From Longimicrobiales bacterium (GTDB lineage: Bacteria > Gemmatimonadota > Gemmatimonadetes > Longimicrobiales > Gaopeijiaceae): 64,000 nt of DNA. Under the pieces are notes generated by a model, which saw only the letters and a list, made by a program, of their open reading frames with translations, was not told where the DNA came from and did not search any database. The stretch spans positions 1,823 to 65,822 of the forward strand of contig DATHRY010000059.1 of the NCBI GenBank assembly GCA_035464715.1, in the 5' to 3' direction. Below are positions 39,356 through 53,945 of this stretch, one piece after another (positions within the stretch are counted from its first letter, which is position 1; each line of letters starts with the position of its first letter). A program made the translations under genes and the position numbers.

Positions 39356-40560
39356 CCCCAGACTTGGGTCAGGACCCTCAAGACGTTCCCTCCCATGACT
39401 TTGCCGATGTCGTCATCGGAGTACCCCTCACGCACCAGCCACCGGAGGATATTGTGCCCCGCCTCGGTGGGATTCTCCAGACCCTGGACCCACTCCACGG
39501 GCTCGTATCCGGGGGTCCCACCCCCTCGGGACTCCTTCAGGGACAGGTTCCCTGCGTAGAGCCGGTGGAGGCCCACGTGGTCTCCGTAGACGGTGTCGGG
39601 CCCGAAGCCCACGTGATCGATCCCCACCAGGCTCCGGATGTACTCGAAGTGCTCCATGAAGGCCTCGATCCCGTGGCGCCGGTGGGTCGGGGTCAGCGTG
39701 GTGTGGGGTGCGGCTTCCACCCCGATCACCCCGCCGGAGGCTGCGCAGGCCTCCAGCACCTCGTCCGGAGCCAGGCGGTTCGAGTCCCACAGGGCACGGG
39801 CCCCGATGTGGGAAAGGACCACCGGATGCTCACTGCAGGCGATGGTGTCCAGGGTGGTCCGATCCCCGCAGTGGGAGCAGTCGATGAGCATCCCCACCCG
39901 GTTCATCCGGGCGACGGCCTTCCGTCCCAGAACGGTCAGGCCTCCGTCCGAGGGCTCCTTGAGCCCCGACCCCAGGGCGTTGGCCTCGGAGTACGTGATG
40001 CCCAGGGCCCGGACGCCGAATCCGTAGAGGAGATCGATGCGGTCGACGTCGTTCTCGATCATGGCCGCCCCCTCCATGGAGGCGATCCACGCCACGCGCC
40101 CCTCCCGGTGGGCCCGGTGCAGGTCGTCCACCCTCCGGGCGTGGACCACGAAGTCCTGGTGGGCGAGGTCGCACAGTCGCATGCCCAGGTCGTGGAGGAC
40201 GTCGTCCCACTGCCAGCCCGTGCGCGAGCGGATCGTGCAGATCCCGTCCAGGAGGTTGTCGAAGACCGCGTCCCAGACCCCCCGGGACAGCCCGTCGAAG
40301 GCCGTGGCCATGCGCCCCTCCCCGACGTAGGCCCGGGTCTCGGTGATGTCCGCCGGAAAGACGCCGGCGTGCTCGTGCATCGAGATCAGGACGCGATCCC
40401 GACGAATGGCCTCGACCCGCGCTTCCTGCTCCGGGGTCAGGGGAAGCGTCCACTCCTCGACCCGGCCCACCTCCCGGGCCAGCTCGAAGGCCCGGTAGTC
40501 CTCGTCGGGGGTCAGGTACTGGAAGGACGTGTATGCGGAGCGGGCCGTGGGGTCGGGCAT
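39352..40560 (-). CDS. Membrane dipeptidase (peptidase M19 family)
   Basis: LISMHEHAG, SMEGAAMIEND, GVRALGITYSEANALG, GMLIDCSHCGD, VLSHIGARAL, IDHVGFGPD. ATG at 40560. Confidence 0.8.
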   Translation of the reverse strand: MPDPTARSAYTSFQYLTPDEDYRAFELAREVGRVEEWTLPLTPEQEARVEAIRRDRVLISMHEHAGVFPADITETRAYVGEGRMATAFDGLSRGVWDAVFDNLLDGICTIRSRTGWQWDDVLHDLGMRLCDLAHQDFVVHARRVDDLHRAHREGRVAWIASMEGAAMIENDVDRIDLLYGFGVRALGITYSEANALGSGLKEPSDGGLTVLGRKAVARMNRVGMLIDCSHCGDRTTLDTIACSEHPVVLSHIGARALWDSNRLAPDEVLEACAASGGVIGVEAAPHTTLTPTHRRHGIEAFMEHFEYIRSLVGIDHVGFGPDTVYGDHVGLHRLYAGNLSLKESRGGGTPGYEPVEWVQGLENPTEAGHNILRWLVREGYSDDDIGKVMGGNVLRVLTQVWG

Positions 40561-40630
40561 GGGCGGTCGGGGTCCAGGGCGGATGTGGAGCGGCGCGACG
40601 GCAAATGGAAGGTTCCCGGACCGGGGGCGC

Positions 40631-40679
40631 AACGAGAAAGGGGCGGCCCCCCGCCCTGCCGAGGAAGGGAGGCCGCCCC
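40631..40679 (-). terminator. Hairpin plus T-rich tail downstream of the lipoprotein gene
   Basis: Perfect 9-bp inverted repeat GGGGCGGCC (40640-40648) / GGCCGCCCC (40671-40679). On the minus strand it is followed by TTTCTCGTT. Confidence 0.4.
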
Positions 40680-40737: not shown

Positions 40738-41085
40738 TCAGCTCATGCACGCCTCGATGGACAGCCCGAGCTCATCGGCCACGAACCTGCCGAGGGCCGC
40801 CATCGTGTCGTCTTCGATCACACCGAGCTCGTACAGCAGACGGGCGAGGTTCCGCAGCCCGGCCCGCGGGTTCGACTGGTCGCTGGAGTGCTGTCCCATC
40901 TCGCCCATCTGCGCGAACACCTTGCTGGCCTGTCCCCAGCACGCGTTGGATGTCGTGGCCGCCTCGGCGCGGAGCTCGGACGAGATATCCGCCGACGTAT
41001 CCGGGGCGACCGGGTCCGCCCCGACGCAGGACGCGGACAGGAGCCCTAAGGTGAGGGCCAGGGCCAGGGTGGGAATGCGGCGCAT
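40738..41085 (-). CDS. Small exported, possibly lipidated, hypothetical protein
   Basis: Signal peptide MRRIPTLALALTLGLLSASC with a weak lipobox, then a 90-aa helical body. Confidence 0.5.
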   Translation of the reverse strand: MRRIPTLALALTLGLLSASCVGADPVAPDTSADISSELRAEAATTSNACWGQASKVFAQMGEMGQHSSDQSNPRAGLRNLARLLYELGVIEDDTMAALGRFVADELGLSIEACMS

Positions 41086-41274
41086 CGGAACCTCCATCAT
41101 GGGGAAAGAGACACACATGCGTACGGTCGCATCCTACGAGCCAGGGCTCGGCAATGCCACAGAGGCCCGCCGCCGGCGGCTCACACTCCCCTGGTGCGCC
41201 CCTCCCCTTCCTCACCACCACCCCCTTCTCCCCCGCCGTCCGAGAGGCGGCGCCGGAGCGAAACGATCGGGCCG

Positions 41275-41676
41275 TCAGTCCGAGGCGGCCAACAGGCCGC
41301 ACCCGACCCACGCGGCGTGGGCGTGATCCCCGTCGCCGCCCAGGAGATCGTGGAGCATCTCGTGCTTCACCACGAACTCGTCGAGGCGGGAATCGCTGCG
41401 CAGGGTGATGTCGTGGGGGGAGTTCCAACGAGCCCGCAGGTCCGCGCCCACGGCGAAGGACTCGATCTCGAACCAGGACACCCGGTCGAAGTCGGCCAGG
41501 GGGAGGCCGCTGCACTCCACCACACTCCCCCAGTAGAGGGTGAAGACCGGCCGTGGCGGTTCGAACGGAACCCGATCCTGCATGAAGAGGAGGGGATCCT
41601 CGCAGGACGCGAGGAGGATCGCGCCGGCGAGTGCGACGGCCCACCTGACCGAGGCCCGGCTACCGCCGTCGCTCAA
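41275..41676 (-). CDS. Lipoprotein with an HExxH motif
   Basis: Lipobox AILLASC and the zinc-metallopeptidase-like motif KHEMLHDL near the C-terminus. 133 aa. Confidence 0.5.
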   Translation of the reverse strand: MSDGGSRASVRWAVALAGAILLASCEDPLLFMQDRVPFEPPRPVFTLYWGSVVECSGLPLADFDRVSWFEIESFAVGADLRARWNSPHDITLRSDSRLDEFVVKHEMLHDLLGGDGDHAHAAWVGCGLLAASD

Positions 41677-41905
41677 CGCCCCTGGGCAGCAGAAGGTAGC
41701 TCTCGGTCATTCACGTCCACCTCATCCCCACGTCGTGCACGCAGCACGGTCAGGAGACCGATCGTCATCAGAGCCCACTTCGGGTCGGGCATCCCACTCC
41801 TCCGGTGCTGAAGGGGCCGGTGGCGACGCGGGACGATGAGGTGAGGAGACGCGCCGGGCAAGCGAGTCGATCGGCATCCCGCCCGATCGAGCCCCCCTCG
41901 ATGAA

Positions 41906-41981
41906 TGGGCGCTGACGGATTCGAACCGCCGACCCCCTGCTTGTAAGGCAGGTGCTCTGAACCAGGCTGAGCTAAGCGCCC
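41906..41981 (-). tRNA. tRNA-Val (anticodon UAC)
   Basis: The reverse complement folds as a cloverleaf: acceptor GGGCGCU/AGCGCCC, D-arm GCUC-AGCCUGGUUCA-GAGC, anticodon arm CCUGC-CUUACAA-GCAGG, T-arm GGCGG-UUCGAAU-CCGUC, discriminator A. CCA is not encoded. Confidence 0.9.
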
Positions 41982-42071
41982 CGAGAATGCGCCGGGACCG
42001 GGCGCACGACGGAAGGTATCATCGCCCGTCGGGCGGGTCGATGGAGGGTGCGGGCCAAGGCGACCCGGCCC

Positions 42072-43580
42072 TCACCGCCTCCCCCGCTTCGGCGGCCGAC
42101 GCCGCGCTGGCGGCTTCTCCTCGGCCTTCACCGCCGCTTCCCCATGATGCGCCACCAGGGCGTCCGCGTACAGCTCGAGGTACCGCTTCGCGGAGCGCTC
42201 CCAACCGAAGTCCCTCGCCATCGCCCGCCGCATGGCGCGTTCCCAGGACTCCCGCTCGGGAAAGGCGTCGAACGCCCGGCGCAGCGCGACCTCGAGGGCG
42301 TGGGGGGTGAACTCGTCGAAGAGGAAGCCCGTCTCCTGGTCGTCCACGGTGTCGGACAGTCCGCCGACCCGCCGGACCACGGGAAGAGCCCCGTAGCGCT
42401 GCGCCCTCATCTGGGTCAGGCCGCAGGGCTCGTACAGGGACGGCATCAGGAGGATGTCGGCGCCGGCCAGCAGGAGGTGTTCCTTGGGCTCCGAGAAGTC
42501 GAAGAAGACGGCGACCCGGCCGGGGATGTGTCCCGCCACCTCTCGGAGCCGCTGCTCGTAGCCCTTGTCCCCCTCCCCGAGGAAGATGAACTGGCCCGGA
42601 GACGTCCGGTACAGGAGGCCGTCGTCCAGGATCAGGTCGAAGCCCTTCTGTTTCGCGAGCCGGGCGGTCATCCCCACCAGGGGCACGTCGGGATCCACGG
42701 GAAGACCGGCCGCCTCCTGGAGACGCGCCTTGCACACCGCCTTCCCGGAGAGGTCGTCCGCGGTGTACGTGGCCGGAATCTCCTCGTCGGTGCCGGGATC
42801 CCACAGCTCCTGGTCGATGCCGTTGAGGATGCCCACCAGCCGACTGCCCATGGCGATGAAGGGGTCGTGGAGCCCGAATCCGCCGGCGGGGGTCCGGAGC
42901 TCGTGGGCATGGGTGGGGCTCACGGTGGTGACCCAGTCGGCGAAGGAGACCCCGCCCTTGAGCCAGTTCAGCTGGCCGTAGTACTCCATCCGGTCCCACC
43001 GGTAGACCTCCGGCGGCAGCCCGAGGGCGCCGAGGATGTCCGGGGAGTAGAGCCCCTGGTACCCGGCGTTGTGGACCGAGAGGACACAGGCGACGGCGTC
43101 GTAGTAGGGATCACCGGCGTACACCGTCCGCAGATAGACGGGCGCGAGGGCGGCGTGCCAGTCGTGGGGATGGAGGACCACGTGCCCCTCCGGGGCCACC
43201 TCGGGCAGCGCCTCCAGGACCGCCCTCGCGAAGAGGGCATAGCGGAAGGCGTTGTCCGGGTAGTCCCCTCCGCCCTCGCCGTAGATACCGTCCCGGTCGA
43301 AGGCGTCGGGATGATCCACGAACCAGGTGGTGGGCGTTCCCTCCTTGTACTCCGCCTGGAGGATCCGGCACTCCCTGTTCTGCCCCGCCACGGGAACGGT
43401 GACGGAACGGCGGGTCTCCAGGGGTCCCACCACCTCACGGACCCGCCGGTAGAAGGGCATGAAGACGTGGGTGTCGGTCCCATGCGCCGCCTGGTGTGAG
43501 GCGATCCCCCGGACGGCCTCGGCCAGTCCGCCGGTGCGGGCGTAGGGCCAGTACTCCCCGACGAGGTGAACGACCTTCAT
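42072..43580 (-). CDS. glgA: Glycogen (starch) synthase
   Basis: MKVVHLVGEYWPYARTGGLAEAV (KTGGL-type motif), HDWHAAL, MPSLYEPCGLTQM. AGGAGG lies 6 nt upstream of the ATG. Confidence 0.9.
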   Translation of the reverse strand: MKVVHLVGEYWPYARTGGLAEAVRGIASHQAAHGTDTHVFMPFYRRVREVVGPLETRRSVTVPVAGQNRECRILQAEYKEGTPTTWFVDHPDAFDRDGIYGEGGGDYPDNAFRYALFARAVLEALPEVAPEGHVVLHPHDWHAALAPVYLRTVYAGDPYYDAVACVLSVHNAGYQGLYSPDILGALGLPPEVYRWDRMEYYGQLNWLKGGVSFADWVTTVSPTHAHELRTPAGGFGLHDPFIAMGSRLVGILNGIDQELWDPGTDEEIPATYTADDLSGKAVCKARLQEAAGLPVDPDVPLVGMTARLAKQKGFDLILDDGLLYRTSPGQFIFLGEGDKGYEQRLREVAGHIPGRVAVFFDFSEPKEHLLLAGADILLMPSLYEPCGLTQMRAQRYGALPVVRRVGGLSDTVDDQETGFLFDEFTPHALEVALRRAFDAFPERESWERAMRRAMARDFGWERSAKRYLELYADALVAHHGEAAVKAEEKPPARRRPPKRGRR

Positions 43581-43635
43581 GACAGCCTCCTGAGGCGCTG
43601 GCGCGAGGATCGCGCGACGGGTCGGCGATCCGACA

Positions 43636-44859
43636 TCAGCCGGCGACGATGTGCAGATGGGCGGCCACCCGTTCCGCCATGGACCGGGTGGTGGCGAGGT
43701 CGGGATGGCGCACGGTCACCATGCCGTCGCCCACCAGGAGCTTCCGCCAGTCGCGCCTCGGCGCGCCGATGGGGTTCAGGTCCAGGTCGACGAGGTTCGG
43801 CCCCAGCTCCGAGAGAATCCCCTCGAGTCCCTCGTACCGCCGGATCCGCCCCTGCCCCTGCGCCCGCTTGTAGATCCAGGCGGCATTGTACTTCCGATCC
43901 ACGGTCTGGGTGAAGCGGCCGTGGACCACGCACTCGGCCCATCCGGTGTAGGTGTCGATGTCCGAGGCGTAGTTGATCAGGTCCACCAGCCCCGCCCCGG
44001 GGGAGCGGGCGCCGATCTCCCCGAAGACCGCCTCCCCGTCGGGCCTCCGGTACCACTCCATGTGGGTGTAGCCGGTCCGGAACCCCAGCGCCTCCAGGAC
44101 CTGGAAGCCCATGGCCTTGCCGGCAGCCAGCTCCGGCAGGTCCGGGTCCCGGTAGACCAGGGTGATGGGGCTCACCCACTCGTTCTCCCTCATGTACAAG
44201 GCCCGGGGGATGTAGGTGGCGATGCTGTGGTGGACCACCTCGCCGGCCACGCACAGGGTGTCGAAGGTCATGTCGTCTCCTTCGACGAACTCCTCGACGC
44301 TCACCTCGGTCACTTGGCGGAGTGCCGGCAGGATCCGGTCCAGCTCTTCGCGGCTCGTGACCTTGTAGGTGCTCTCCGACCCCGCCCCGGCGATGGGCTT
44401 CACGATGACCGGGTAGCCGATGGTCTCGGCGCCCTCCACGGCCTGGGCCGCCGTAGTGGCGCTGTAGTGGTGCGGGGTCCGGATCCCGGCGGCGTCCAGG
44501 ACCCGCTTCATGACCTCCTTGTCCCGGAACGGCACGGTCTGCTCCACGGTGAGACCCGGCAGCCCCAGGCGCTCCCGGATCCGGGCCGCCAGGATCACGT
44601 AGGGCTCCCACAGGCATTCCACCCGGTCCAGATGGACCCGCTGCGCAAAGTGGGCCACCCGTTCCACGATGCCGGCCTCGTCCTGGAACGAGCCTACGTG
44701 GAGGTAGGCCGAGAGGCTCTCCCGGGCCGCGGGAGGGAGGTGGTCCTCGGGCTGGTCCCCCAGCCCCACCACCCGGGCCCCTTCCCGGGCCAGGCCCCGG
44801 GTGAAGTACTGCATCTCCTTGGGGAACCCCGGCGAGATCATCAGGACGTTCATCGGCAC
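43636..44859 (-). CDS. ATP-grasp ligase, paralogue A
   Basis: FRDKEVMKRVL, YPVIVKPIAGAGS, VEEFVEGDD, THMEWY, EIGARSPG. The start is GTG 44859 or ATG 44853, 1-7 nt after the stop of paralogue B. Confidence 0.8.
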   Translation of the reverse strand: MPMNVLMISPGFPKEMQYFTRGLAREGARVVGLGDQPEDHLPPAARESLSAYLHVGSFQDEAGIVERVAHFAQRVHLDRVECLWEPYVILAARIRERLGLPGLTVEQTVPFRDKEVMKRVLDAAGIRTPHHYSATTAAQAVEGAETIGYPVIVKPIAGAGSESTYKVTSREELDRILPALRQVTEVSVEEFVEGDDMTFDTLCVAGEVVHHSIATYIPRALYMRENEWVSPITLVYRDPDLPELAAGKAMGFQVLEALGFRTGYTHMEWYRRPDGEAVFGEIGARSPGAGLVDLINYASDIDTYTGWAECVVHGRFTQTVDRKYNAAWIYKRAQGQGRIRRYEGLEGILSELGPNLVDLDLNPIGAPRRDWRKLLVGDGMVTVRHPDLATTRSMAERVAAHLHIVAG

Positions 44860-44860
44860 A

Positions 44861-46081
44861 TCACCCCAACTCGATCCGGACCCGGGTCACGATCTTCCTC
44901 AGGGCATCCTTGACCACCCCGGTCTCGGGATGCCGCACGATCACGTAGCCCTCCCCTTCGTAGCCCCCGGACGGTGTCTGGGCCTCCCGGGGGAGACGGG
45001 CCTCCACCACCAGGGGCCCCAGCTCCCGGGCCACCTCCGCCAGGCCCCGGACCGCCTTGACCCGACCCTGACCCTGCCCTCTCAGGTACGCCGCACCCGC
45101 CGCGAAGGGTCGGGGACGGGGGGTGAACCGCCCATACACCACCGCCTCGGCCCAGGCCCGGAACAGGTCGAAGTCGTGGGCCCAGGAAATGAGGTTCACG
45201 AACCGGGCCCCGGGGGGTCGGGCGGCCACCTCCGAGATGGCCACGCTCCCGTCGGCCCGCCGGAACCACTCCATGTGGGAGAGTCCCGTGGTCATCCCGA
45301 GCGCCTCCAGCGCCCGCCCAGCCACCCCGCGGATCCCCTCGTAGCCGGGGTCGTCCGCCTCCCGGGGGAGGAGGACGCACCACTGGATCCAGGGCTCGCG
45401 GAGCGCTTCCAGGGCGGAGGGGAAGTAGTGGTTGATGGAGTGCCACACCACCCGTCCGTCCAGGGACATGGCGTCGAAGGAGTGTTCGTCGCCCACGACG
45501 AACTCCTCCAGGAGCGTGGGCCGGTCCGGCGACGGGGGCATCTGCGCCAGCAGGCCGTCCAGATCCCCCTCGGACCCGATCCGGAACGTCCCCCGGGACC
45601 CGGACCCCGCAGGGGGCTTGGCGATCACCGGCAGCCCCACCGCCTCGACGAAGGCTCGGGCGTCCTCCGGCGAGCGGACCAGGGCGTGGCGCGCACACGG
45701 GAGGCCGTGGTCCCGGAGGATGTCCTTCATCCGGGACTTGTCCCGGAAGTTCTCCGCCACCTCGGCCCCCATCCCCGGGAGCCCCAGACGGTCACGGACA
45801 CGTCCCAGGGGCACCTGCAGCTCCTCGAACGTCCCCAGGAGGAGGTCCACCGCCGGGCCCCGTCGTCCGAGCTCCTCCACCGCGCCCTGAAGAATCCCGG
45901 GGTCCAGGGCGTCGCCCACCCGAACGAACTCCGCCAACCCGGCCCGCAGTTCGCTGGGGAGCCGGTCCGGGGGATCCTGGCTGACCAGGGACAGCCGCGT
46001 CGCCTCGAGTCGGGCCAACGCCGCCATGAAGCGCAGCGTGGTCTCGGCGAAGAACGGGGCCACGAACGCGACGTGGGGCAT
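44861..46081 (-). CDS. ATP-grasp ligase, paralogue B
   Basis: FRDKSRMKDIL, LPVIAKPPAGSGS, LEEFVVGDE, SHMEWF, EVAARPPG. Internal ATG at 46081 of the ORF 44861-46186. Confidence 0.8.
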   Translation of the reverse strand: MPHVAFVAPFFAETTLRFMAALARLEATRLSLVSQDPPDRLPSELRAGLAEFVRVGDALDPGILQGAVEELGRRGPAVDLLLGTFEELQVPLGRVRDRLGLPGMGAEVAENFRDKSRMKDILRDHGLPCARHALVRSPEDARAFVEAVGLPVIAKPPAGSGSRGTFRIGSEGDLDGLLAQMPPSPDRPTLLEEFVVGDEHSFDAMSLDGRVVWHSINHYFPSALEALREPWIQWCVLLPREADDPGYEGIRGVAGRALEALGMTTGLSHMEWFRRADGSVAISEVAARPPGARFVNLISWAHDFDLFRAWAEAVVYGRFTPRPRPFAAGAAYLRGQGQGRVKAVRGLAEVARELGPLVVEARLPREAQTPSGGYEGEGYVIVRHPETGVVKDALRKIVTRVRIELG

Positions 46082-46188
46082 GGTCGGGAGGCCGGGCCGG
46101 CCGCCGCCGGCGTGGACAGGGTGAGGGAGGACGTCGGGAGCTGGACGGCGGGAAAGGTATCCGCCGAACCGCCGCCACGGTACCATCA

Positions 46189-46247
46189 GGGCCCGTCCGC
46201 CCCTTATGTTGTGCCCGTTTCCCCTCCGCTCTCCCCGGACGGGGCCC
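46189..46247 (+). promoter_or_regulatory. Inverted repeat in the leader/promoter of ATP-grasp paralogue C
   Basis: GGGCCCGTCCG (46189-46199) and CGGACGGGGCCC (46236-46247) flank a 36-nt relatively AT-richer spacer. The repeat ends 22 nt before the ATG at 46270. Confidence 0.3.
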
Positions 46248-46269
46248 TCGTCCTCCAGCGCCCGGCCCC

Positions 46270-47493
46270 ATGCACGTCGTCTTCGTGGAACCCTGCTTCC
46301 CGGCGAACCAGAAGGAGTTCGTCCGTGGCCTGGCCCAGTCGGGGGCCACCGTCTCAGCCGTGGGCGAGCGTCCGCGGGAGGCCCTGGACGACGACCTGCG
46401 GCGCTGGATCCTCCACTACGAGCAGATCCCCACGGTGGTGGACGCGGACGCCCTGGCCCGCACCGTGTCGTGGTTGAACGACCGCCTCCGGGTGGATCGG
46501 CTCGAGACCACCGTGGAGGCCCACGTCCTGCCGGCGGCCCAGGTGCGCGAGGCGCTGGGCATCGCGGGCACGTCGGTGCGCACCGCCTTCCTGTGCCGCG
46601 ACAAGCCCGCCATGAAGGAGGTCCTCCGGGAGGGCGGAGTGGCGACGGCCGCGTCCATGGGCGGAAACGACCCGGAAGCCATCTTCGCGTTCGCTCACCA
46701 GACGGGCTACCCGCTGATCGTGAAGCCCCGGGCGGCGGCAGGGGCCTCGGGGACGGAGCGTGTGACCTCCGACGACGAGCTCCGGGGCGCGCTGGAGCGG
46801 GCCGGCGTGTTCCAGGGTGCCGAGGTGGCCTTGGAGGAGTTCGTGGAGGGGCACGAGGCCTTCTACGACACCATCACGATCAACGGCAGCGTGGCCCACG
46901 AGTTCATCACCCACTACTACCCGAACGTCCTCGAGGCCATGCGCACCCGGTGGATCTCGCCCCAGTTCATCACCACCAACCGGATCGAGAGCGCCCCGGA
47001 CTACCAGGCGGTCCTGGAGCTGGGGCGACGGGTGAACCAGCTCGTGGAGATCGAGACGTCCGCGACCCACATGGAGTGGTTCTTCGGCCCGAAGGGCCTG
47101 CGGTTCTCCGAGGTGGGGTGTCGGCCTCCCGGGGTCCGTGCGTGGGACCTCTACGCCGCCGGGAACGACCTGGACATCTACCAGGAGTGGGGCATGGCGG
47201 TGGTCCACGGCCGGACCTTGCGAAAGGCGTCCCGCCGCTTCTCCGCGGGGATCATCGCCCTGCGGCCCGACCAGGACGGCGTCATCGCCGGGTACGACGG
47301 GGTCGGCGAGATCCAGGAGCGGTTCGGCGAATGGATCCTGGACGCCCACCTGCCGCCGGAGGGCACGCCGACCCAGCCGGTGGAAGCGGGATACATGGCC
47401 AACGCCTGGGTCCGCATGCGGCATCCCGATTTCGATCACCTCCGCTTCATGCTGGACACGGTGGGCGAGGTGATGCAGGTGCGGGCCCGGTGA
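46270..47493 (+). CDS. ATP-grasp ligase, paralogue C
   Basis: CRDKPAMKEVL, YPLIVKPRAAAGAS, LEEFVEGHE, THMEWF, EVGCRPPG. Same length (407 aa) as A and B. Confidence 0.8.
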   Translation: MHVVFVEPCFPANQKEFVRGLAQSGATVSAVGERPREALDDDLRRWILHYEQIPTVVDADALARTVSWLNDRLRVDRLETTVEAHVLPAAQVREALGIAGTSVRTAFLCRDKPAMKEVLREGGVATAASMGGNDPEAIFAFAHQTGYPLIVKPRAAAGASGTERVTSDDELRGALERAGVFQGAEVALEEFVEGHEAFYDTITINGSVAHEFITHYYPNVLEAMRTRWISPQFITTNRIESAPDYQAVLELGRRVNQLVEIETSATHMEWFFGPKGLRFSEVGCRPPGVRAWDLYAAGNDLDIYQEWGMAVVHGRTLRKASRRFSAGIIALRPDQDGVIAGYDGVGEIQERFGEWILDAHLPPEGTPTQPVEAGYMANAWVRMRHPDFDHLRFMLDTVGEVMQVRAR

Positions 47494-48458
47494 CCCAGGT
47501 GACCGGTACGGCGGACCGGGTGGTCCTCGTGAGCTCTCGGCGCAAGGACCCGGGCCTGGCCGAGGTCGTGGAGGAGCTCGGGACCGCGGGACCGGTGGCC
47601 CTGCTCACCGCGGGGTGGCAGGAGTGGGAAGAGGACGACGAGGCGCTCCGCAGCGCCCTGGGCCGGGAGGTGGTGAACCTCCGCCTGTGGCACCGGGCCG
47701 AGGAGGTCTGGCGGGAGGACCCCGAGCTGGCGGCGGGGCACCGGGAGGTCCAGAGCCGGGTCCGCCTTCTCCGTCAGGCCTACAACCTCCGCCTGGCCCA
47801 CGCCATGGACGCCTGGATCCACCTTGAGGCGCTCCCGGGGGAGAACGAGGTGCTCGATGGAGAGCGGGGCTCGGCTCTCGAGGCGGTACGACGCCTGGAT
47901 CGGGAGCACGCCGCGAGGCTCCGGGAGTTCCGTCGGGCCTACCACCAGCGCTTCGATCCCCTGGTGCGGGACGCGGTGGCGCGGCAGCGGTGCGAGATCG
48001 CCGACGCCCTCGAGGACGCCGGGCTTCTGGTGGTGGCGGGCGGCCACGTGGCGGTGATCCTCAACCGGATCCGGCTCTTCGGTCTGGACCGCCTCCTGGA
48101 GGGCAAGGCGGTGCTGGCTACCGGAGCGGGGGCCATGGCCCTGGGGCAGCAGGTCGTGCTCTTCCACGACTCCCCGCCCTGGGGACCCGGCCACGCCGAG
48201 GTGGGGGAGGTCGGTCCGGGCCTCTACTCCGGCGTGGTGCCCCTCCCTGAGCCCGACGTCCGGTTGCGGCTCGACGATCCGGGTCGGGTGTCCCGCATGG
48301 CCCGGCGCTTCGCCCCGGACAGCTGCCTCCTCCTGGAGCCCGGCACCCGGGCGGAGTGGCGGGGCGGCTGGACCACGTCCGACGCCCGGCGCCTCGGGCC
48401 CGTTGGTCGTCCCGAGGCCTGGGACGGACGCACCCCCCCTTCCCTGGAGGCGTCGTGA
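47490..48458 (+). CDS. Peptidase-S51 (cyanophycinase/dipeptidase E)-like protein lacking the expected catalytic Ser and His
   Basis: The GTG start overlaps the stop of paralogue C (GTGA). The layout VALLTAG...ALGREVVNLRL, then LLVVAGGHVAVIL, then GKAVLATGAGAMALG parallels the S51 pattern (i.tAs / ftGGn..l / G.SAGA), but reads GAGA where GxSAG is expected. A helical insertion of about 90 aa is present. Confidence 0.4.
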   Translation: MTQVTGTADRVVLVSSRRKDPGLAEVVEELGTAGPVALLTAGWQEWEEDDEALRSALGREVVNLRLWHRAEEVWREDPELAAGHREVQSRVRLLRQAYNLRLAHAMDAWIHLEALPGENEVLDGERGSALEAVRRLDREHAARLREFRRAYHQRFDPLVRDAVARQRCEIADALEDAGLLVVAGGHVAVILNRIRLFGLDRLLEGKAVLATGAGAMALGQQVVLFHDSPPWGPGHAEVGEVGPGLYSGVVPLPEPDVRLRLDDPGRVSRMARRFAPDSCLLLEPGTRAEWRGGWTTSDARRLGPVGRPEAWDGRTPPSLEAS

Positions 48459-49609
48459 CCGTCCCGGAACTGGCGGGTCTCGCGGTCGCCGAGCTCGCGG
48501 AAAGCCCGCCTCCCGACCCCGCCAGGATCGACGCTTTCCTCGAGCGGCACTCGGTCCCGATCGTCGAGGGACGCTCGGTCACCTTCCTCTTCCGGGGGGA
48601 GGCGGACGCCGTCCGGCTCCGTCACTGGATCTACGGACTCACCAGCGACGACGACCTCCGGCGGATCCAAGGGACGGACCTCTGGGTCCTCGTCATGGAG
48701 TTGCCCGAGGGGTCACGGGTGGAGTACAAGCTCGAGGTGACCCGGGGCCGGCGGGTGGAGTGGCTCCAGGATCCCCTCAACCCCCACCTCGCCCACGACC
48801 CTTTCGGCGCCAACTCCGTGGCCCACGGCGAGGGCTACGAGGTGCCGGACTGGACCCGGCCCGATCCCGAGGCGCCGGAGGGCACGCTGGAGGAACGCAT
48901 CTTCGAGAGCGCGGCCCTGGGCGGGACTCGACGGATCACCCTCTATCGACCCCACCGGTTCAGAGCCTCCCGGCGCCACCCGCTCGTCGTGGTCCACGAC
49001 GGGGGAGATTACCTCCGCTTCGCTGCGCTCAAGACCGTCCTGGACAACCTCATCCACCGGCTCGAGATCCCGGGTCTGGTGATGGCCCTGATGCACCCGC
49101 CGGATCGGATGGAGCAGTACCGGGACAACGAGGCCCACGCCCGCTACCTCACCCACGAGCTGGTGCCCCAGCTCGAGGCGGAGCTCCCCCTGGCGGGGAC
49201 CCCCGACGGACGGTGCCTCATGGGGGCCAGCCTCGGTGCCGTGGCGGCCCTGTCCACAGCGGTGCGCCATCCCGGGTTCTACGGCAGGCTCCTCCTCCAG
49301 TCCGGCTCCTTCGCCTTCTCGGACATCGGGGAGCACGGCAGGGGCCCCGCCTTCGACCCCGTCGCCGAATTCATGAACCGGTACCGCAGAGATCCCGAGG
49401 CCGTGAGCGGGAAGGTCTTCATGAGCTGCGGCATGTACGAGTCCCTCATCTACGAGAACCGCTCTTTCGTGCCCGTGCTCCAGAGCACCGGCATGGAGGT
49501 TCGGTACGTGGAAGCCCGGGACGGGCACAACTGGGAGAACTGGCGGGACCGTCTGCGGACCGGGCTGTCGTGGCTCTTTCCCGGACCCCTCTGGATGGTG
49601 TACGAGTAG
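48455..49609 (+). CDS. Esterase (PF00756-like) with an N-terminal E-set/CBM48-like beta domain
   Basis: GTGA overlap with the upstream gene. N-terminal VTFLFRGEADAVRLRH...DLWVLVMELPEGSRVEYKLEV.......DPLNP. Catalytic part: VVVHDGGDY, nucleophile elbow GASLGA, DGHNWENW. Confidence 0.7.
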   Translation: MTVPELAGLAVAELAESPPPDPARIDAFLERHSVPIVEGRSVTFLFRGEADAVRLRHWIYGLTSDDDLRRIQGTDLWVLVMELPEGSRVEYKLEVTRGRRVEWLQDPLNPHLAHDPFGANSVAHGEGYEVPDWTRPDPEAPEGTLEERIFESAALGGTRRITLYRPHRFRASRRHPLVVVHDGGDYLRFAALKTVLDNLIHRLEIPGLVMALMHPPDRMEQYRDNEAHARYLTHELVPQLEAELPLAGTPDGRCLMGASLGAVAALSTAVRHPGFYGRLLLQSGSFAFSDIGEHGRGPAFDPVAEFMNRYRRDPEAVSGKVFMSCGMYESLIYENRSFVPVLQSTGMEVRYVEARDGHNWENWRDRLRTGLSWLFPGPLWMVYE

Positions 49610-49641
49610 CTGGCATCCCACCCCGATACACAGGAGACGGC

Positions 49642-50886
49642 ATGGCAGAGGTGACCCGCAGGATCGGCCTTTCACTCGGGGCGGACATCTGCTGGCCCAT
49701 CGCCTTCACGGAGATCCTCGACCGGCTGGACCTGGCGATCCCGGTGGGAGGCGACACGGTGCGCTTCGAAGTGGAGCGGATGACCATCGACCCCTTCGAC
49801 CTGCGGGAGCCGAAGCGGTACGACCTGGTCGTGGACCGGCTGACCCACTGGTACAACACCCGGAGGGAGTGGATCAAGAAGGCGGTGATGATGGACGACG
49901 TCTACGTCTTCAACAATCCGTGGTCCGTCCAGTCCATGGAGAAGTCCACGTCCTACGCCGTCATGATGCGGCTGGGCTTCCCCATCCCGAACACCTGGCT
50001 GGTCCCCCCCCGGGCCTACGAGCCCATGGACGACCTCGAGGTGACGCTGCAGCGGTACGCGCGCCACTTCGACCTCGGCACGATCGGGTCGGAGCTCGGC
50101 TACCCCATGTTCATGAAGCCGTACGACGGCGGGGGATGGCGGGCCGTCACCCGGCTGGAGGACGAGTCCGCGCTACGGGAGGCCTACGACCAGAGCGGAA
50201 AGCTGGTCATGCTGCTCCAGGAGGCGGTGGAGCCCTTCGACCGCTTCGTCCGCTGCATCGGCCTGGGGCCTCAGACCCACGTGGTCCGGTACGATCCCAA
50301 GGCCCCGCTCCACGACCGCTACACCATGGACCACGGCTTCCTCTCCCCGGAGGAGCGGGACGTGATCGACTCCACCACCCTGATCATCAACGCCCTATTC
50401 CGGTGGGACTTCAATTCCTGCGAGCTCCTCCACCGGGACGGGGTCTGGTACCCCATCGACTTCGCCAACCCCTGCCCCGACTCCCAGGTGACCTCCCTCC
50501 ACTACCACTTCCCCTGGCTCATCCAGGCCAACCTCCGCTGGGCGCTCTTCGCCGCGGCCACGAAGCGGAAGCTGCGTCCCCTGGACTGGACCCGGTGGTT
50601 CGAGGCCGTGGACGAGGAGATGACCCTCAGGGAGCGGTTGGACGCCCTGACTCCCATCGCCCACGAGCACTTCGAGACCGAGCGGTTCCGGGAGTTCTGC
50701 GACACGCACCTGGCCCACCTGGACGAGGTCGCCCACACCTGGTTCGGGACCGATGACGCCCGGGAGGCGGTGCGCCGCAAGGTGGCCGCCCTCTTCCCGC
50801 CACACGAGGTCGATGAGTTCACCGGCGTCTTCTTCGATCGGATCCAGCGGTGGAGAGCCGACGCCGACGCCGGGGTCCAGCCTTGA
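49642..50886 (+). CDS. Divergent ATP-grasp-like protein
   Basis: AGGAGA lies 6 nt upstream of the ATG. Contains YPMFMKPYDGGGWRAV, LLQEAV and VWYPIDFANPCPD, which parallel ATP-grasp phosphate-loop and Mg-site segments. 414 aa and not alignable by eye to paralogues A-C. Confidence 0.5.
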   Translation: MAEVTRRIGLSLGADICWPIAFTEILDRLDLAIPVGGDTVRFEVERMTIDPFDLREPKRYDLVVDRLTHWYNTRREWIKKAVMMDDVYVFNNPWSVQSMEKSTSYAVMMRLGFPIPNTWLVPPRAYEPMDDLEVTLQRYARHFDLGTIGSELGYPMFMKPYDGGGWRAVTRLEDESALREAYDQSGKLVMLLQEAVEPFDRFVRCIGLGPQTHVVRYDPKAPLHDRYTMDHGFLSPEERDVIDSTTLIINALFRWDFNSCELLHRDGVWYPIDFANPCPDSQVTSLHYHFPWLIQANLRWALFAAATKRKLRPLDWTRWFEAVDEEMTLRERLDALTPIAHEHFETERFREFCDTHLAHLDEVAHTWFGTDDAREAVRRKVAALFPPHEVDEFTGVFFDRIQRWRADADAGVQP

Positions 50887-51620
50887 AGGAGCGGCAGACC
50901 TGGTTCAGTCCTCGTGTGAACCGGGAGGTGACCGTGGTCCGGTGGGGGACCGTCGGCACGCCGTTCCTGATCTTCCCCACCGCAGGGGGCGACGCGGAGG
51001 AGATCGAGCGCTTCCACATCGTCACGGCACTGGCGCCCCACCTCGAGGCCGGCCGGATCAAGATCTACTCCTGCGACAGCGTGCCCGGGCAGTCCCTCCT
51101 CACCAACGAGGGCTCGCCCGAGCACCGCATGTGGATCATGAACCAGTTCCAGGAGTTCATCCGCCACGAGTTGGTGCCGGCCATCCGGACGGACTGCCGG
51201 AGCGACGACATCGAGGTGGTGGCCGGGGGCGCGTCCATCGGCGCCTTTCACGCGCTGGCCGTCGTCTGCCGCTACCCGGACGCCTTCAGCAAGGCCCTGT
51301 GCATGAGCGGCACCTTCGACCTGGCCCGTTTCATCCCGGCCCAACCGAACGGCGATTTCCTCGCGGCGTCCCCGCTCCACTGGCTGCCCCGCCTGCCCGA
51401 GGGCGAGCTCCTGGACGCCCTGAGGTCCCGCTTCATCCTCCTCGCCTCGGGCGAGGGGAAGGCCGAGGACATCGGAGAATCGTGGCGGGCGGCGGGTGCT
51501 CTGGGCGCCCGGGGCATTCCCAACCGGGTCGACTCCTGGGGAACCGAGTGGAGCCACGACTGGCCCACCTGGCGCCATATGCTGCCCGCCTACGTGGACG
51601 AGCTGTTCCCCACGAGCTGA
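50850..51620 (+). CDS. Esterase-family serine hydrolase (PF00756-like, single domain)
   Basis: LIFPTAGGD, nucleophile elbow GASIGAFHA, SHDWPTW. The start is uncertain: ATG 50850 overlaps the upstream gene by 37 nt, or TTG 50883 gives a TTGA overlap. Confidence 0.65.
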   Translation: MESRRRRRGPALKERQTWFSPRVNREVTVVRWGTVGTPFLIFPTAGGDAEEIERFHIVTALAPHLEAGRIKIYSCDSVPGQSLLTNEGSPEHRMWIMNQFQEFIRHELVPAIRTDCRSDDIEVVAGGASIGAFHALAVVCRYPDAFSKALCMSGTFDLARFIPAQPNGDFLAASPLHWLPRLPEGELLDALRSRFILLASGEGKAEDIGESWRAAGALGARGIPNRVDSWGTEWSHDWPTWRHMLPAYVDELFPTS

Positions 51621-51723
51621 AGGGCGATCGGGCCCGAGACCAGGCGTCGCGACGGGGGTCGATGTGAGGATGCCTCCGGGATGGGGCGCGTCCCGGACCC
51701 GAACGGCTACCGGTTTCGGACCA

Positions 51724-52251
51724 CTAGTAGCTGGCCCAGACCGAGGTGCGGCCGTCGCGATCGAAGGCCAGGACCTCGTAGGGGTCGGCGGCCCGCCCCT
51801 CGATCTCCATCCCCGGGGAGCCCACGGGCATCCCCGGCACGGCAAGTCCAGCCACGTCGGGGCGCTCGTCGAGAAGCCGCCGGATGTCGTCGGCGGGAAC
51901 GTGGCCCTCGACCAGGTACCCGGCGACCCGGGCGGTATGGCACGACGTCATCGCTCCGGGCAGGCCGAGCTCCCCCTTCACCGCCGTCATGTTCGGCTGG
52001 TCGATGACGTCGACGGTGAATCCGTGCTCCCGCAGATGCTCGATCCAGTCGCCGCAGCAGCCGCAGGTCGGCGACTTGTAGACCTGGACGACCTCCCCTG
52101 AGGGTGCGGCCTCCAGAAGGCTCTCCCCGGCGGCGGTCACCTGAGTCGGCGCGGCGGTCTCCGGGGGGGCGGAGTCGGCGCGGCTGCCGAGGATCACGGC
52201 GGTGGCGCCCACCAGGGCGAGGGCGGCGAAACCGAAGGCACGCAGGTTCAT
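51724..52251 (-). CDS. DUF411-family periplasmic metal-binding protein (CopG-like)
   Basis: Signal peptide, then YKSPTCGCCGDWIEHL, TSCHTA and GMPVGSPGME. Confidence 0.7.
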   Translation of the reverse strand: MNLRAFGFAALALVGATAVILGSRADSAPPETAAPTQVTAAGESLLEAAPSGEVVQVYKSPTCGCCGDWIEHLREHGFTVDVIDQPNMTAVKGELGLPGAMTSCHTARVAGYLVEGHVPADDIRRLLDERPDVAGLAVPGMPVGSPGMEIEGRAADPYEVLAFDRDGRTSVWASY

Positions 52252-52288
52252 GTCGTCTCCCGAGGGCCGGCCCGCAGCCGGTCCGTGT

Positions 52289-52483
52289 TCACTTGATGAT
52301 GGCTAGGGGCAGCAACACGACGTAGGCCAGGACCAGGAGGATGGGGGCCGCGGTGATGGAGCCGTTGGACAACATCCAGTACCCGGCTACGAGGCATCCG
52401 AGCCCCGCCAGCCCCAGCAGCGCGTTGACCGGCGAGAAGCGGAGGGATCCTGTAGCTTCGTCGTGCTTCTTCGAACTCTTCAT
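52289..52483 (-). CDS. Small two-TM membrane protein
   Basis: 64 aa with a basic N-terminus followed by two hydrophobic helices. Resembles DUF3098-type small proteins. Confidence 0.4.
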   Translation of the reverse strand: MKSSKKHDEATGSLRFSPVNALLGLAGLGCLVAGYWMLSNGSITAAPILLVLAYVVLLPLAIIK

Positions 52484-52547
52484 GACCCATGGGTGGAGTG
52501 GCTCCGGATGCTAGGCCGGAAGCCGGTGCGGAGCAAGCACCCGGCCC

Positions 52548-53945
52548 TCAATCCGGGACCTCCAGATCGAATCGGTCCACGTAGCGCTGGAGCCGGGAGC
52601 GTGAGATGCCCAGCACCCGCGCCGCTTCGCTCTTGTTCCCCTCGGTCCGTCGGACGACGAACTGCACGTGCTCCGCGATGACCTTCGCCAGGGCCAGGTC
52701 GTCGGGATCCACCCGCTGATGCACCGCGGGCGGCGCCGTCCTGTCGTCCTCGTCCACGCTGGGCCGGTCCACGCCCAGCCGGAGGTGGTCGGCGGCCAAC
52801 GTCCGGCCCCGGGCCACCAGGGCCGCCCGGGTGAGGGCGTTCTCCAGCTCCCGCACGTTTCCGGGCCAGTCGTAGGCCTCCATCATGGCCAGGGCCGCCG
52901 GGTCGACGCGGTCCACGTCCTGACCGGTCTCCGCACGGATGCGAGCCAGCAGGGCCTCGATCAGGAGCGGCAGATCGCTCATCCGCTCCCGCAGGGGGGG
53001 GATGTTCATCTCCACCACCCGGAGCCGGAAGTAGAGGTCCTCCCGGAAGGAGCCCTCGTCCACCAGGGCCTCCAGGGGCTGGTGGGTGGCGGCGATCACC
53101 CGGGCGTCCGTGGTGCGCAAGGACTCGCCACCGACCGGGTAGTACGTCCGCTCCTGCAGGACCCGCAGCAGCTTGGCCTGGAACTCCGGGCTGGTGTCCC
53201 CGATCTCGTCCAGGAAGATCGTGCCGCTCCCGGCGAGCTCGAAGTAGCCCCGCCGGCCGGAGGTGGCCCCGGTGAAGGCGCCCTTCACGTGGCCGAAGAG
53301 CTCGGACTCCAGCAACGACTCCGACAGCGCCGTGCAGTTCACGGCAATGAAGGGCTCATCGGAATGATTGGAGTACTCGTGGATGGCCCGGGCGACCCTC
53401 TCCTTCCCCGTGCCCGTCTCCCCCCGGATGAGGACCGTGGCCCGGTTCCGGGCCAGGATCCCGATGAGCTTGTAGACCTCGATCATGCGCGGGTCGCCTC
53501 CGACGATGGCGTCGGGACCCGGTGCGGGCCTGGGGTCGTCCTCGTCCCGGAGCGACGGGGTCTTCCGGTTGAGCGCCTGCTCCTTGAGCACGCGTTCCAC
53601 CAGCGAGGCGAGGGCATCCATCTTCACCGGCTTGACCAGGTAATCCACCGCCCCGGCCTTCATCGCCCCGACCGCGCTGTTCATGTCCTCGTGCCCGGTC
53701 ATGACCACCACGTCGGTGTCGGGTCGATCCTCCCGGATGCGCCGCGTCAGATCCAGACCGGACATTCCGGGCATGCGAAGGTCCGTCAGCACGAGATGGG
53801 GCTCCAGGCTCGAAATCTGGGCGAGGGCGGATTCCGCGGAATCCGCCGCCTCGACCTGGTAGCCCACGTGGCGGAGCTTCTCCGCCAGGGCCTCCCGGAG
53901 TCCCGTCTCGTCGTCGACGACCAGAATTCTACCGTCCATCGGCAT
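52548..53945 (-). CDS. Sigma54-dependent response regulator (NtrC family: REC, AAA+, Fis-type HTH)
   Basis: ILVVDDE...LTDLRMPGMSG, Walker A GETGTGKE, GAFTGA loop (VKGAFTGA), ESELFGH, and a C-terminal HTH (NKSEAARVLGISRSRLQ). Confidence 0.9.
   Translation of the reverse strand: MPMDGRILVVDDETGLREALAEKLRHVGYQVEAADSAESALAQISSLEPHLVLTDLRMPGMSGLDLTRRIREDRPDTDVVVMTGHEDMNSAVGAMKAGAVDYLVKPVKMDALASLVERVLKEQALNRKTPSLRDEDDPRPAPGPDAIVGGDPRMIEVYKLIGILARNRATVLIRGETGTGKERVARAIHEYSNHSDEPFIAVNCTALSESLLESELFGHVKGAFTGATSGRRGYFELAGSGTIFLDEIGDTSPEFQAKLLRVLQERTYYPVGGESLRTTDARVIAATHQPLEALVDEGSFREDLYFRLRVVEMNIPPLRERMSDLPLLIEALLARIRAETGQDVDRVDPAALAMMEAYDWPGNVRELENALTRAALVARGRTLAADHLRLGVDRPSVDEDDRTAPPAVHQRVDPDDLALAKVIAEHVQFVVRRTEGNKSEAARVLGISRSRLQRYVDRFDLEVPD

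Follow-up and report, generated by a model that had tools for sequence, protein, structure and literature searches.

We analysed a gene cluster in a 64,000-nucleotide (nt) stretch of DNA, here called the window, which is part of contig DATHRY010000059.1 of a Longimicrobiales bacterium (Gemmatimonadota; assembly GCA_035464715.1). The cluster is a set of eight genes arranged in two divergent arms (Table 1): glgA, four genes for predicted ATP-dependent ligases (A, B, C and D), two genes for predicted esterases (Est1 and Est2) and a gene for a protein resembling S51 peptidases (P5). This region is one copy of a widespread, uncharacterised cytoplasmic system. The gene coordinates, the GTGA start/stop overlaps at the C/P5 and P5/Est1 junctions, the divergent spacer of 188 base pairs (bp) and the AGGAGA upstream of D are all as described in an earlier note on this DNA. 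In the minus arm, B and A are 1 nt apart and A and glgA 55 nt. The start of B at 46081 agrees with the N-terminus that is conserved among its orthologues, and the start of Est2 overlaps the end of D by 37 nt, provided that the GTG at 50850 is the true start. The G+C content of the region is approximately 71%.

Table 1. Position and predicted identity of the cluster genes and of the surrounding features in the window
Feature	Position	Strand	Description
glgA	42072-43580	-	ADP-glucose-type glycogen synthase, 502 amino acids (aa); last gene of the minus arm B>A>glgA
Ligase A	43636-44859	-	Predicted ATP-grasp protein, L-amino-acid-ligase type, 407 aa
Ligase B	44861-46081	-	Paralogue of A and C, 406 aa
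Spacer between B and C	46082-46269		Divergent, 188 bp
Ligase C	46270-47493	+	407 aa; opens the plus arm
P5	47490-48458	+	Predicted cyanophycinase-fold (S51-like) protein, 322 aa
Est1	48455-49609	+	Predicted Fes-like PF00756 serine hydrolase or acyltransferase, 384 aa
Ligase D	49642-50886	+	Predicted LysX/ArgX/RimK/Ddl-like ATP-grasp ligase, 414 aa; AGGAGA upstream
Est2	50850-51620	+	Predicted short PF00756 serine hydrolase-type protein, 256 aa
Peptidase_M19 dipeptidase	39352-40632	-	Pfam match 1.7e-68; beyond tRNA-Val
Two small open reading frames (ORFs)	40738-41118, 41275-41676	-	No Pfam match; beyond tRNA-Val
tRNA-Val (anticodon TAC)	41906-41981	-	About 90 bp past the glgA stop
DUF411 metal-binding protein	51724-52251	-	Just downstream of Est2
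Sigma-54-dependent response regulator	52548-53945	-	Response_reg, Sigma54_activat and HTH_8 domains; downstream of Est2

A scan of a one-genome-per-species collection with an alignment of seven D sequences identified relatives of D in at least 585 genomic stretches, and a search of representative sequences gave 1362 clusters (50% identity) related to D, 227 of them at E ≤ 1e-30. No relatives of D were found on plasmids. The closest homologues of D and P5 are found in metagenome-assembled genomes of Longimicrobiales and other Gemmatimonadota. Synteny was counted in the best 80 of the at least 585 stretches, onto which the window proteins were mapped by tblastn. In these 80 loci D is 58-85% identical to D of the window. 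The loci belong to at least eight phyla and come from Gemmatimonadota, Myxococcota (Kofleriaceae, Polyangia, Nannocystis, Archangium, Labilithrix and Sandaracinaceae), Gammaproteobacteria (Steroidobacteraceae and Woeseiaceae), Alphaproteobacteria, Planctomycetota, Acidobacteriota, Eisenbacteria and Actinomycetota (Acidimicrobiales). Among the 47 loci with at least 6 kilobases (kb) on either side of D (well-flanked loci), Est1 lies within 10 kb of D in 44, Est2 in 42, P5 in 39, C in 36, A in 31 and B in 26. Est1 directly precedes D in 65 of the 80 loci, D directly precedes Est2 in 63 and P5 directly precedes Est1 in 56, while C directly precedes P5 in 23 (plus 5 divergent) and A and B are direct neighbours in 23. 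The loci hardly depart from the order P5>Est1>D>Est2, of which Est1-D-Est2 is the invariant core. Co-occurrence across genomes had been put forward in the earlier note as a check on the cluster, and synteny proved to be strongly conserved. The eight-gene set is not described in the publications that we found; it may have been mentioned in earlier computational work.

The glgA gene is a recurrent member of the conserved set and not a chance neighbour, contrary to its treatment in the earlier note. It lies within 10 kb of D in 26 of the 47 well-flanked loci, whereas chance would place a single-copy gene such as glgA this close to a given gene in well under 1% of genomes. GlgA of the window matches TIGR02095 (485 bits, cut-off 328) and Glyco_transf_5 (7e-65), carries an RTGGL motif and falls in a Longimicrobiales clade. 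Its orthologues (58-73% identity) adjoin A, directly or with glgB in between, in L004, L008, L018 and L049, glgB being the intervening gene in L008, L018 and L049. In other phyla, a GlgA of another canonical clade (KTGGL motif) is encoded directly upstream of C; glgA and C are adjacent and co-directional in 22 of the 80 loci (plus 3 divergent), with several gaps of 8-20 bp. This cluster-type GlgA scores 536-542 bits against TIGR02095 (cut-off 328), with one copy over an equivalog cut-off, and shows 48-68% identity between phyla, much as the other cluster proteins do. The order glgA>C>P5>Est1>D>Est2 is contiguous in Myxococcota and Eisenbacteria (e.g., L009, L012, L014, L020, L031, L033 and L035), and all eight genes are contiguous in Woeseiaceae (L043, L065 and L076). 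Other glycogen genes occur as well: an alpha-glucan phosphorylase gene (glgP) follows Est2 in several Gemmatimonadota, malQ is nearby in Steroidobacteraceae and Acidobacteriota, and 7 of 11 Gemmatimonadota loci have at least one glycogen gene within 10 kb. The only glycogen gene in the window is glgA.

Ligases A, B and C, which the earlier note had recognised as ATP-grasp paralogues, share 33-35% identity over their full length (B with A 35%, BLASTP E 2e-75; B with C 33%, 6e-61; C with A 33%, 6e-71), a paralogy that lies far beyond chance at the sequence level. In Pfam searches, A matches ATPgrasp_N (34.4 bits) and ATP-grasp_3 (32 bits), both over cut-off, and also Dala_Dala_lig_C; B matches ATP-grasp PF02222 (40.4 bits, 3e-10, cut-off 27) and weakly LAL_C2; and C matches CPSase_L_D2 (29.4 bits, cut-off 19.8). 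The closest solved structures are L-amino acid ligases, for A 3vot (BL00235; 9e-17) and 4wd3 (1e-12) and for C 4wd3 (4.5e-12), with BacD also among the best matches. LAL_C2 reaches only 16.8 bits (cut-off 29.4) and the BacD equivalog 25-34 bits (cut-off 850). Residue conservation was assessed in 31-54 orthologues from many phyla. In A, 78 columns are at least 95% identical in 39 orthologues, including K154, E189/E190, H266-M267-E268-W269, E281 and R285. B has 73 such columns in 31 sequences, with K155, E192/E193, E271, E284 and R288 kept, and C, the most conserved of the three, has 124 in 54 sequences, with K152, E189/E190, E269, E281 and R285 kept. By these sequence comparisons, A, B and C are assigned as ATP-grasp enzymes with intact ATP/Mg residues, probably of the L-amino-acid-ligase type.

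Ligase D is the anchor of the conserved core and lies outside any Pfam family; no Pfam match was obtained even at E ≤ 10. The NCBIfam models rimK_fam (26.2 bits, 4.5e-6, cut-off 143.4) and LysX_arch (25.4 bits, 6.8e-6, cut-off 275.6) match D with scores far under their cut-offs, which would place D outside the RimK/LysX/ArgX family models, and a sequence search of the PDB gave marginal Ddl matches only. Because sequence searches were marginal for D and gave no assignment for P5, fold prediction was needed to place both proteins. The AlphaFold2 model of D (predicted local distance difference test score, pLDDT, 91) has an additional C-terminal helical domain (residues 283-410), and Foldseek searches with this model returned 483 PDB matches at E ≤ 1e-3, headed by ArgX (3vpc), LysX (3vpd) and Ddl/VanA at about 1e-11. 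Alignments that extend down to 26% identity show no change at K159, Q193, R204, E261, D273 and N276, and 134 of the 414 columns are at least 95% identical in 83 sequences from many phyla. D is thus predicted from its modelled fold to be an ATP-grasp protein with an intact catalytic Lys/Glu/Asp/Asn set, in agreement with the fourth, very divergent ATP-grasp-like protein of the earlier note. ATP/Mg residues are kept in all four ligases.

P5 of the window is not assigned by Pfam, NCBIfam or a PDB sequence search, and PF03575 is absent even at E ≤ 10. A profile of the P5 family gave a weak match to PepE DR_1070 (E 0.1) in which the GGH and xSGGAM motifs are aligned, and PF03575 is carried by some P5 homologues. 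The AlphaFold2 model (pLDDT 89.4) contains a long helical hairpin insertion of roughly 100 residues (approximately 66-175), and Foldseek matched it to the S51 peptidase and cyanophycinase structures 6nqc, 7uqv, 3en0 and 7uqw (E 1e-7 to 1e-3, probability 1.00), so that P5 is predicted by its model to have an S51/cyanophycinase fold. The nucleophile Ser is replaced by Gly212 in P5 of the window (ATGAGAM), leaving the GxSAGA motif incomplete, and residue 254 is Glu at the usual position of the 'PH' His. Close relatives have the consensus ACSGGAM, and AWSAGAM is the form seen most often in other phyla. Of 120 close homologues, 86 keep the Ser, as do most orthologues of the other phyla; about one quarter of the close Gemmatimonadota relatives also lack it. 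Across 172 sequences, H226, R193, R258 and R273 do not vary, and D227 and E237 hardly do. This pattern suggests a carboxylate-binding site, and the invariant Arg residues line the predicted site in the model. The earlier designation of P5 as S51-like is borne out by the fold and by PF03575 in its homologues, but not by a profile assignment or a nucleophile Ser in the window sequence itself. Because of the lost Ser, P5 of the window probably serves to bind and less probably to trim as a peptidase.

Est1 and Est2, noted earlier as two GxSxG esterases, both match PF00756 (75.7 bits, 6e-21 and 43.8 bits, 3e-11, respectively; cut-off 22) and, as judged from their alignments, are PF00756 proteins that keep Ser and His across phyla. 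S259, D356 and H358 of Est1 are at least 95% conserved, as are S129 and H236 of Est2 (68 orthologues). Est1 has an N-terminal beta-sandwich domain that matches Enterochelin_N (27.9-30.5 bits). Its relatives in the PDB are the enterochelin esterase 2b20 (3e-14) and feruloyl esterases of family CE1, and its score against the enterochelin-esterase equivalog NF007758 is 106 bits (cut-off 222). To our knowledge, PF00756 enzymes act only on esters and thioesters, sugar esters included (Fes, esterase D, CE1 and antigen 85). Est1 ends in PGPLWMVYE (49580-49606). Among the Est1 orthologues of loci L003-L082, (V/I)Y(E/D) following a PGP turn forms the exact end of 59 of 68 proteins (87%) across phyla. 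This acidic end co-varies with the presence of P5: where P5 is present the end is acidic in 52 loci and non-acidic in 4, and where P5 is absent it is acidic in none and non-acidic in 7. The seven loci without P5 are those of Alphaproteobacteria and Acidimicrobiia and represent only about two independent events. Three Planctomycetota Est1 proteins with a -TYM end were compared with P5 variants having a Cys nucleophile, and no pairing was seen. D could use the Est1 tail as an acceptor, or P5 could dock on it or trim it.

Neighbouring genes of the 80 loci were identified by clustering the remaining ORFs and scanning them with Pfam. The recurrent extra neighbours are, by their domains, mostly further candidate amide-bond enzymes. 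A protein of approximately 645 aa that unites a glutamate-cysteine ligase family 2 domain (GCS2) with two CBS domains is encoded directly after Est2 in 12 loci (L009, L012, L015, L022, L031, L033, L034, L041, L045, L050, L070 and L080) of Myxococcota, Acidimicrobiia and one Planctomycetota genome. In Alphaproteobacteria, a YbdK-type GCS2 gene precedes Est1 instead. A PGM1-like ATP-grasp peptide ligase is found near the core in 6 loci and an AstE/AspA-like hydrolase in 4 loci. Distant D homologues (28-38% identity) have an S51 gene (464-505 aa) directly upstream in L083 (8540-11230), L088 (5305-7991) and L091 (6487-9233), and this S51 partner is homologous to P5 (2e-10) and scores over the PF03575 cut-off. 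A PF00756 esterase and HEAT-repeat proteins accompany a distant D in L089 (6749-14419) and a GCS2 gene in L090 (617-2925). Since distant D homologues have S51, PF00756 and GCS2 partners, these links are old and not single-lineage accidents. The neighbourhood of the distant D/S51 pairs also contains a divergent DUF3806 gene, HEAT-repeat genes and, nearby, Ser/Thr kinase genes.

Among the neighbour ORFs of the 80 loci we found no conserved transporter, non-ribosomal peptide synthetase or polyketide synthase gene or regulator, and neither these loci nor the window contain a conserved small ORF (30-115 aa) within the cluster or within 1.5 kb of it; the small-ORF clusters that were found are antisense shadows of larger genes. 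This argues against a ribosomally synthesised and post-translationally modified peptide (RiPP), a LysW-type carrier, a siderophore and a classical secondary-metabolite cluster. A graspetide or other RiPP system and a LysW-type carrier system were rejected because a conserved short precursor or carrier ORF is lacking, in line with the earlier exclusion of graspetides. The Fes-like esterases also raised the possibility of a siderophore system, which was discarded, as genes for siderophore synthesis or TonB uptake are not conserved alongside the cluster. On direct reading, no signal peptide is apparent at the N-termini of the cluster proteins, and the system is therefore cytoplasmic.

The 188-bp spacer between B and C presumably holds the promoters of both arms. 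It has no Rfam match and no sigma-70-like consensus, and scans for sigma-70 promoters and terminators were uninformative; a scan of 41000-52600 with Rfam detected no riboswitch or other element apart from the tRNA. A sigma-54-like GG-N10-GC candidate in the spacer was rejected, as it is not conserved in orthologous spacers, despite the NtrC-type activator encoded nearby. NtrC-like genes occur near the cluster also in L006 and L019. In one Gemmatimonadota genome (L001, 4257-6634) the spacer measures 2.4 kb and contains a sulfatase-like ORF (PF00884, 9e-17), which looks like an insertion separating both arms. On the other side of the minus arm, tRNA-Val is the end point of the transcription unit. 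The M19 dipeptidase gene beyond it is absent near the cluster in all 80 related loci and, not being conserved alongside, is probably unrelated to the cluster. The DUF411 gene of the window and the copper/iron genes adjoining the cluster in L001 are lineage-specific.

In its working, the cluster comes closest to a cyanophycin system taken apart, yet it fails the defining tests of such a system. It shares with cyanophycin metabolism (CphA and CphB) the pairing of ATP-grasp ligation with an S51-fold protein, the cytoplasmic location and the reserve context, and the best structural matches of P5 are cyanophycinases and related S51 peptidases. It differs by having four separate ATP-grasp proteins in place of the CphA-type fusion of ATP-grasp and Mur-ligase modules: cyanophycin synthetase models match only the ATP-grasp stretch (24-44 bits, cut-offs 850-877), and Pfam detects no Mur-ligase domain in any cluster protein, so that cyanophycin synthetase does not fit, as had been concluded before. 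Further differences are Est1 and Est2 in the core, the insertion in P5, the lack of the Ser in P5 of the window and the link to glgA. With RimK, LysX and ArgX the cluster has in common the fold of D, the pairing of a ligase with a peptidase-type protein and the conserved terminal Glu on the neighbouring Est1, whereas D has low scores against their models and an extra C-terminal helical domain, and persists where Est1 lacks the acidic end. RimK and LysX had been excluded in the earlier note for want of an acceptor. This holds in part: a LysW-like small ORF is absent from the cluster, but Est1 has the conserved -VYE end that co-varies with P5. A, B and C resemble L-amino acid ligases (BL00235, RizA/RizB and BacD/YwfE) in length (approximately 407 aa) and in their ATPgrasp_N/ATP-grasp/LAL_C2-like architecture, but the similarity is remote (E 1e-17 to 1e-7) and under the specific-family cut-offs of Pfam and NCBIfam, and here three conserved paralogues occur per genome in at least eight phyla, with glgA in the operon and without antibiotic-type accessory genes. 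Est1 has the Fes architecture of an Enterochelin_N beta-sandwich followed by PF00756 with Ser, Asp and His, as compared with Fes/IroD/IroE, CE1 and antigen 85, and differs from Fes esterases by the -VYE end, the sub-cut-off equivalog score and the invariable pairing with an ATP-grasp ligase and a short PF00756 protein. The seven proteins other than GlgA have no NCBIfam equivalog and no close solved structure, and we agree with the earlier view that no characterised pathway fits.

The interpretation that we tentatively put first, at somewhat less than an even chance, is that of a cytoplasmic system, coupled to glycogen reserve metabolism, in which an aminoacyl or peptidyl product rich in carboxylates is both ligated and hydrolysed. 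As is established for L-amino acid ligases, the carboxyl groups of amino acids would be converted by A, B and C to acyl-phosphates, and the activated residues would be coupled into a short peptide unit that is probably acidic. D would carry out a further ligation, and the product would be formed, transferred or hydrolysed by the flanking Est1 and Est2. Because D is bracketed by proteins of an ester/thioester family, an ester- or thioester-linked step would be expected in the formation, transfer or removal of the product. S51 enzymes such as PepE and cyanophycinase recognise acidic residues, which together with the invariant Arg residues of P5 points to an Asp- or Glu-rich product whose acidic end P5 may bind or trim; in the genome of the window, P5 without its nucleophile would serve as a binding partner only. 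The presence of glgA in the operon suggests that the product is formed together with glycogen or on it: the set would be expressed with glgA, and its product, a reserve or decoration that contains nitrogen, would arise next to glycogen or on the polymer itself and be taken apart again by the built-in hydrolases. This is consistent with the broad idea of the earlier note, stepwise ATP-dependent formation of amide or ester bonds with built-in hydrolases, which stands in view of the conserved synteny and ATP/Mg residues. The product may be a small molecule or a polymer. In a specific and rather improbable form of this proposal, the reserve would be a hybrid in which amino acids or short acidic peptides are ester-bonded to glycogen. 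The ATP-grasp ligases would then provide acyl-phosphates, P5 would handle peptide ends, and Est1, with its carbohydrate-module-like N-terminal domain, and Est2 would, like antigen 85 and CE1 enzymes, transfer acyl groups to sugars or remove them.

Several observations weigh against the coupling of a carboxylate-rich product to glycogen reserves. GlgA of the window shares no more than 35-39% identity with the cluster-type GlgA found in other phyla and belongs to a different clade, about 45% of the well-flanked loci have no glgA within 10 kb of D, and the distant D/S51 pairs occur without glycogen genes. The loci without glgA and these glycogen-free pairs suggest that the glycogen link may be regulatory and not chemical. 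We know of no precedent for aminoacylated or peptidylated glycogen, and matches of the Est1 N-terminal domain to modules that bind starch or glycogen stay below threshold (CBM_48 0.0045; CBM_20 0.02-0.3). A plain polyamide would not require two esterases, and P5 is dispensable in Alphaproteobacteria and Acidimicrobiia and lacks the catalytic Ser in the window. Beyond the family assignments, the mechanism is one that we infer from gene context.

Other explanations start from different parts of the same evidence. Because the nearest folds of D ligate onto a protein C-terminal Glu, we considered that D ligates amino acids onto the C-terminal Glu of Est1 (-VYE). P5 would then dock on or trim this tail, as RimB does against RimK and LysK in LysW systems, with A, B and C making the attached group or lengthening it. 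Such protein tailing would account for ArgX and LysX at the top of the Foldseek list of D and for its weak rimK and LysX matches, for the (V/I)Y(E/D) end past the PGP turn and its co-variation with P5, for the frequent Est1-D adjacency and for invariant Arg residues in P5 that suit carboxylate binding, and the conservation of D is as expected of an enzyme that recognises a macromolecule. Alphaproteobacteria and Acidimicrobiia, however, keep D, Est1 and Est2 without an acidic Est1 end. D is therefore not dependent on the tail, and we rank this possibility as a rival, and a quite unlikely one, instead of the main model. The seven tail-less cases that underlie the co-variation derive from only about two lineages, the hydrophobic LWMVY could be a mere structural or docking strand, the distant D/S51 pairs have no esterase partner, and three further ligases and the link to glgA would be left unexplained. 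That the nearest relatives of A, B and C are L-amino acid ligases forming dipeptides could instead indicate a soluble di- to pentapeptide, such as an osmolyte, a glutathione-like gamma-glutamyl thiol or an antimetabolite. PF00756 includes S-formylglutathione hydrolase, and the esterases would hydrolyse thioester or ester conjugates, as esterase D does with S-formylglutathione; P5 would be a dipeptidase, and glgA would only be co-regulated, glycogen supplying carbon and energy. GCS2-type gamma-glutamyl ligases recurring beside the core and beside one distant D homologue, the AstE/AspA-like N-acyl-amino-acid hydrolase in four loci and the lack of an identifiable polymer-specific component among the cluster proteins agree with a small peptide. 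We nevertheless regard it as unlikely, as the exporter, resistance gene and regulator typical of secondary-metabolite clusters are not conserved, the occurrence in at least eight phyla with D at 58-85% identity points to core physiology rather than a natural-product cluster, P5 ranks nearer to cyanophycinase, a polymer hydrolase, than to PepE in Foldseek, and the operonic position of glgA is unexplained.

A free cyanophycin-like polyamide has a similarly small chance of being the product. RimK-type enzymes make poly-Glu, and D might elongate a poly-Asp or poly-Glu backbone to which A, B and C add side-chain residues, with P5 as the depolymerase, the esterases as accessory proteins and the glycogen genes as neighbours simply because both products are reserve polymers. 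The cyanophycinase fold of P5, its ancient pairing with D, the requirement for several ligase activities, as in CphA, and the gene context of reserve metabolism are what such a polymer would predict. It is harder to reconcile with the most invariant partners of D, which are the two esterase-family proteins and not P5, with the absence of a CphA-like Mur-ligase module from the cluster proteins, and with P5 missing in two lineages and lacking its Ser in the window and in about one quarter of close relatives, where the polymer would be non-degradable. Finally, each of the families is common in bacterial genomes by itself and glgA of the window is of a different clade from the cluster-type genes, so that ATP-grasp genes, esterases and glgA with separate functions might lie together by coincidence. 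We consider this extremely improbable, given that the eight families recur jointly and in varied orders in 80 loci of at least eight phyla and that the frequency of glgA near D, 26 of 47 loci, compares with the expectation of well under 1%.

The known kind to which the cluster belongs is that of multi-ligase ATP-grasp systems with dedicated hydrolases, and new chemistry is a real possibility. D and P5 lie outside curated families, even though D is conserved across at least eight phyla at a level that is usual for core metabolism. Four ATP-grasp ligases, two esterases and a cyanophycinase-like protein in one conserved operon with glgA suggest a branch of reserve metabolism that has gone unrecognised and is carried by abundant environmental groups that include Gemmatimonadota, Myxococcota, Planctomycetota, Acidobacteriota, Woeseiaceae and Steroidobacteraceae. 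The co-variation of the Est1 -VYE end with P5 provides a concrete and cheaply testable hypothesis. Were the cluster to make a new polyamide or depsipeptide reserve or to decorate glycogen, its product would be a new storage compound beside glycogen, polyhydroxyalkanoate, polyphosphate and cyanophycin, and the cluster would also provide new ligases for peptide or ester synthesis. Should the hybrid reserve be true, the polymer in which many bacteria of soils and sediments store carbon would serve them for nitrogen as well, in a form of glycogen not described before.

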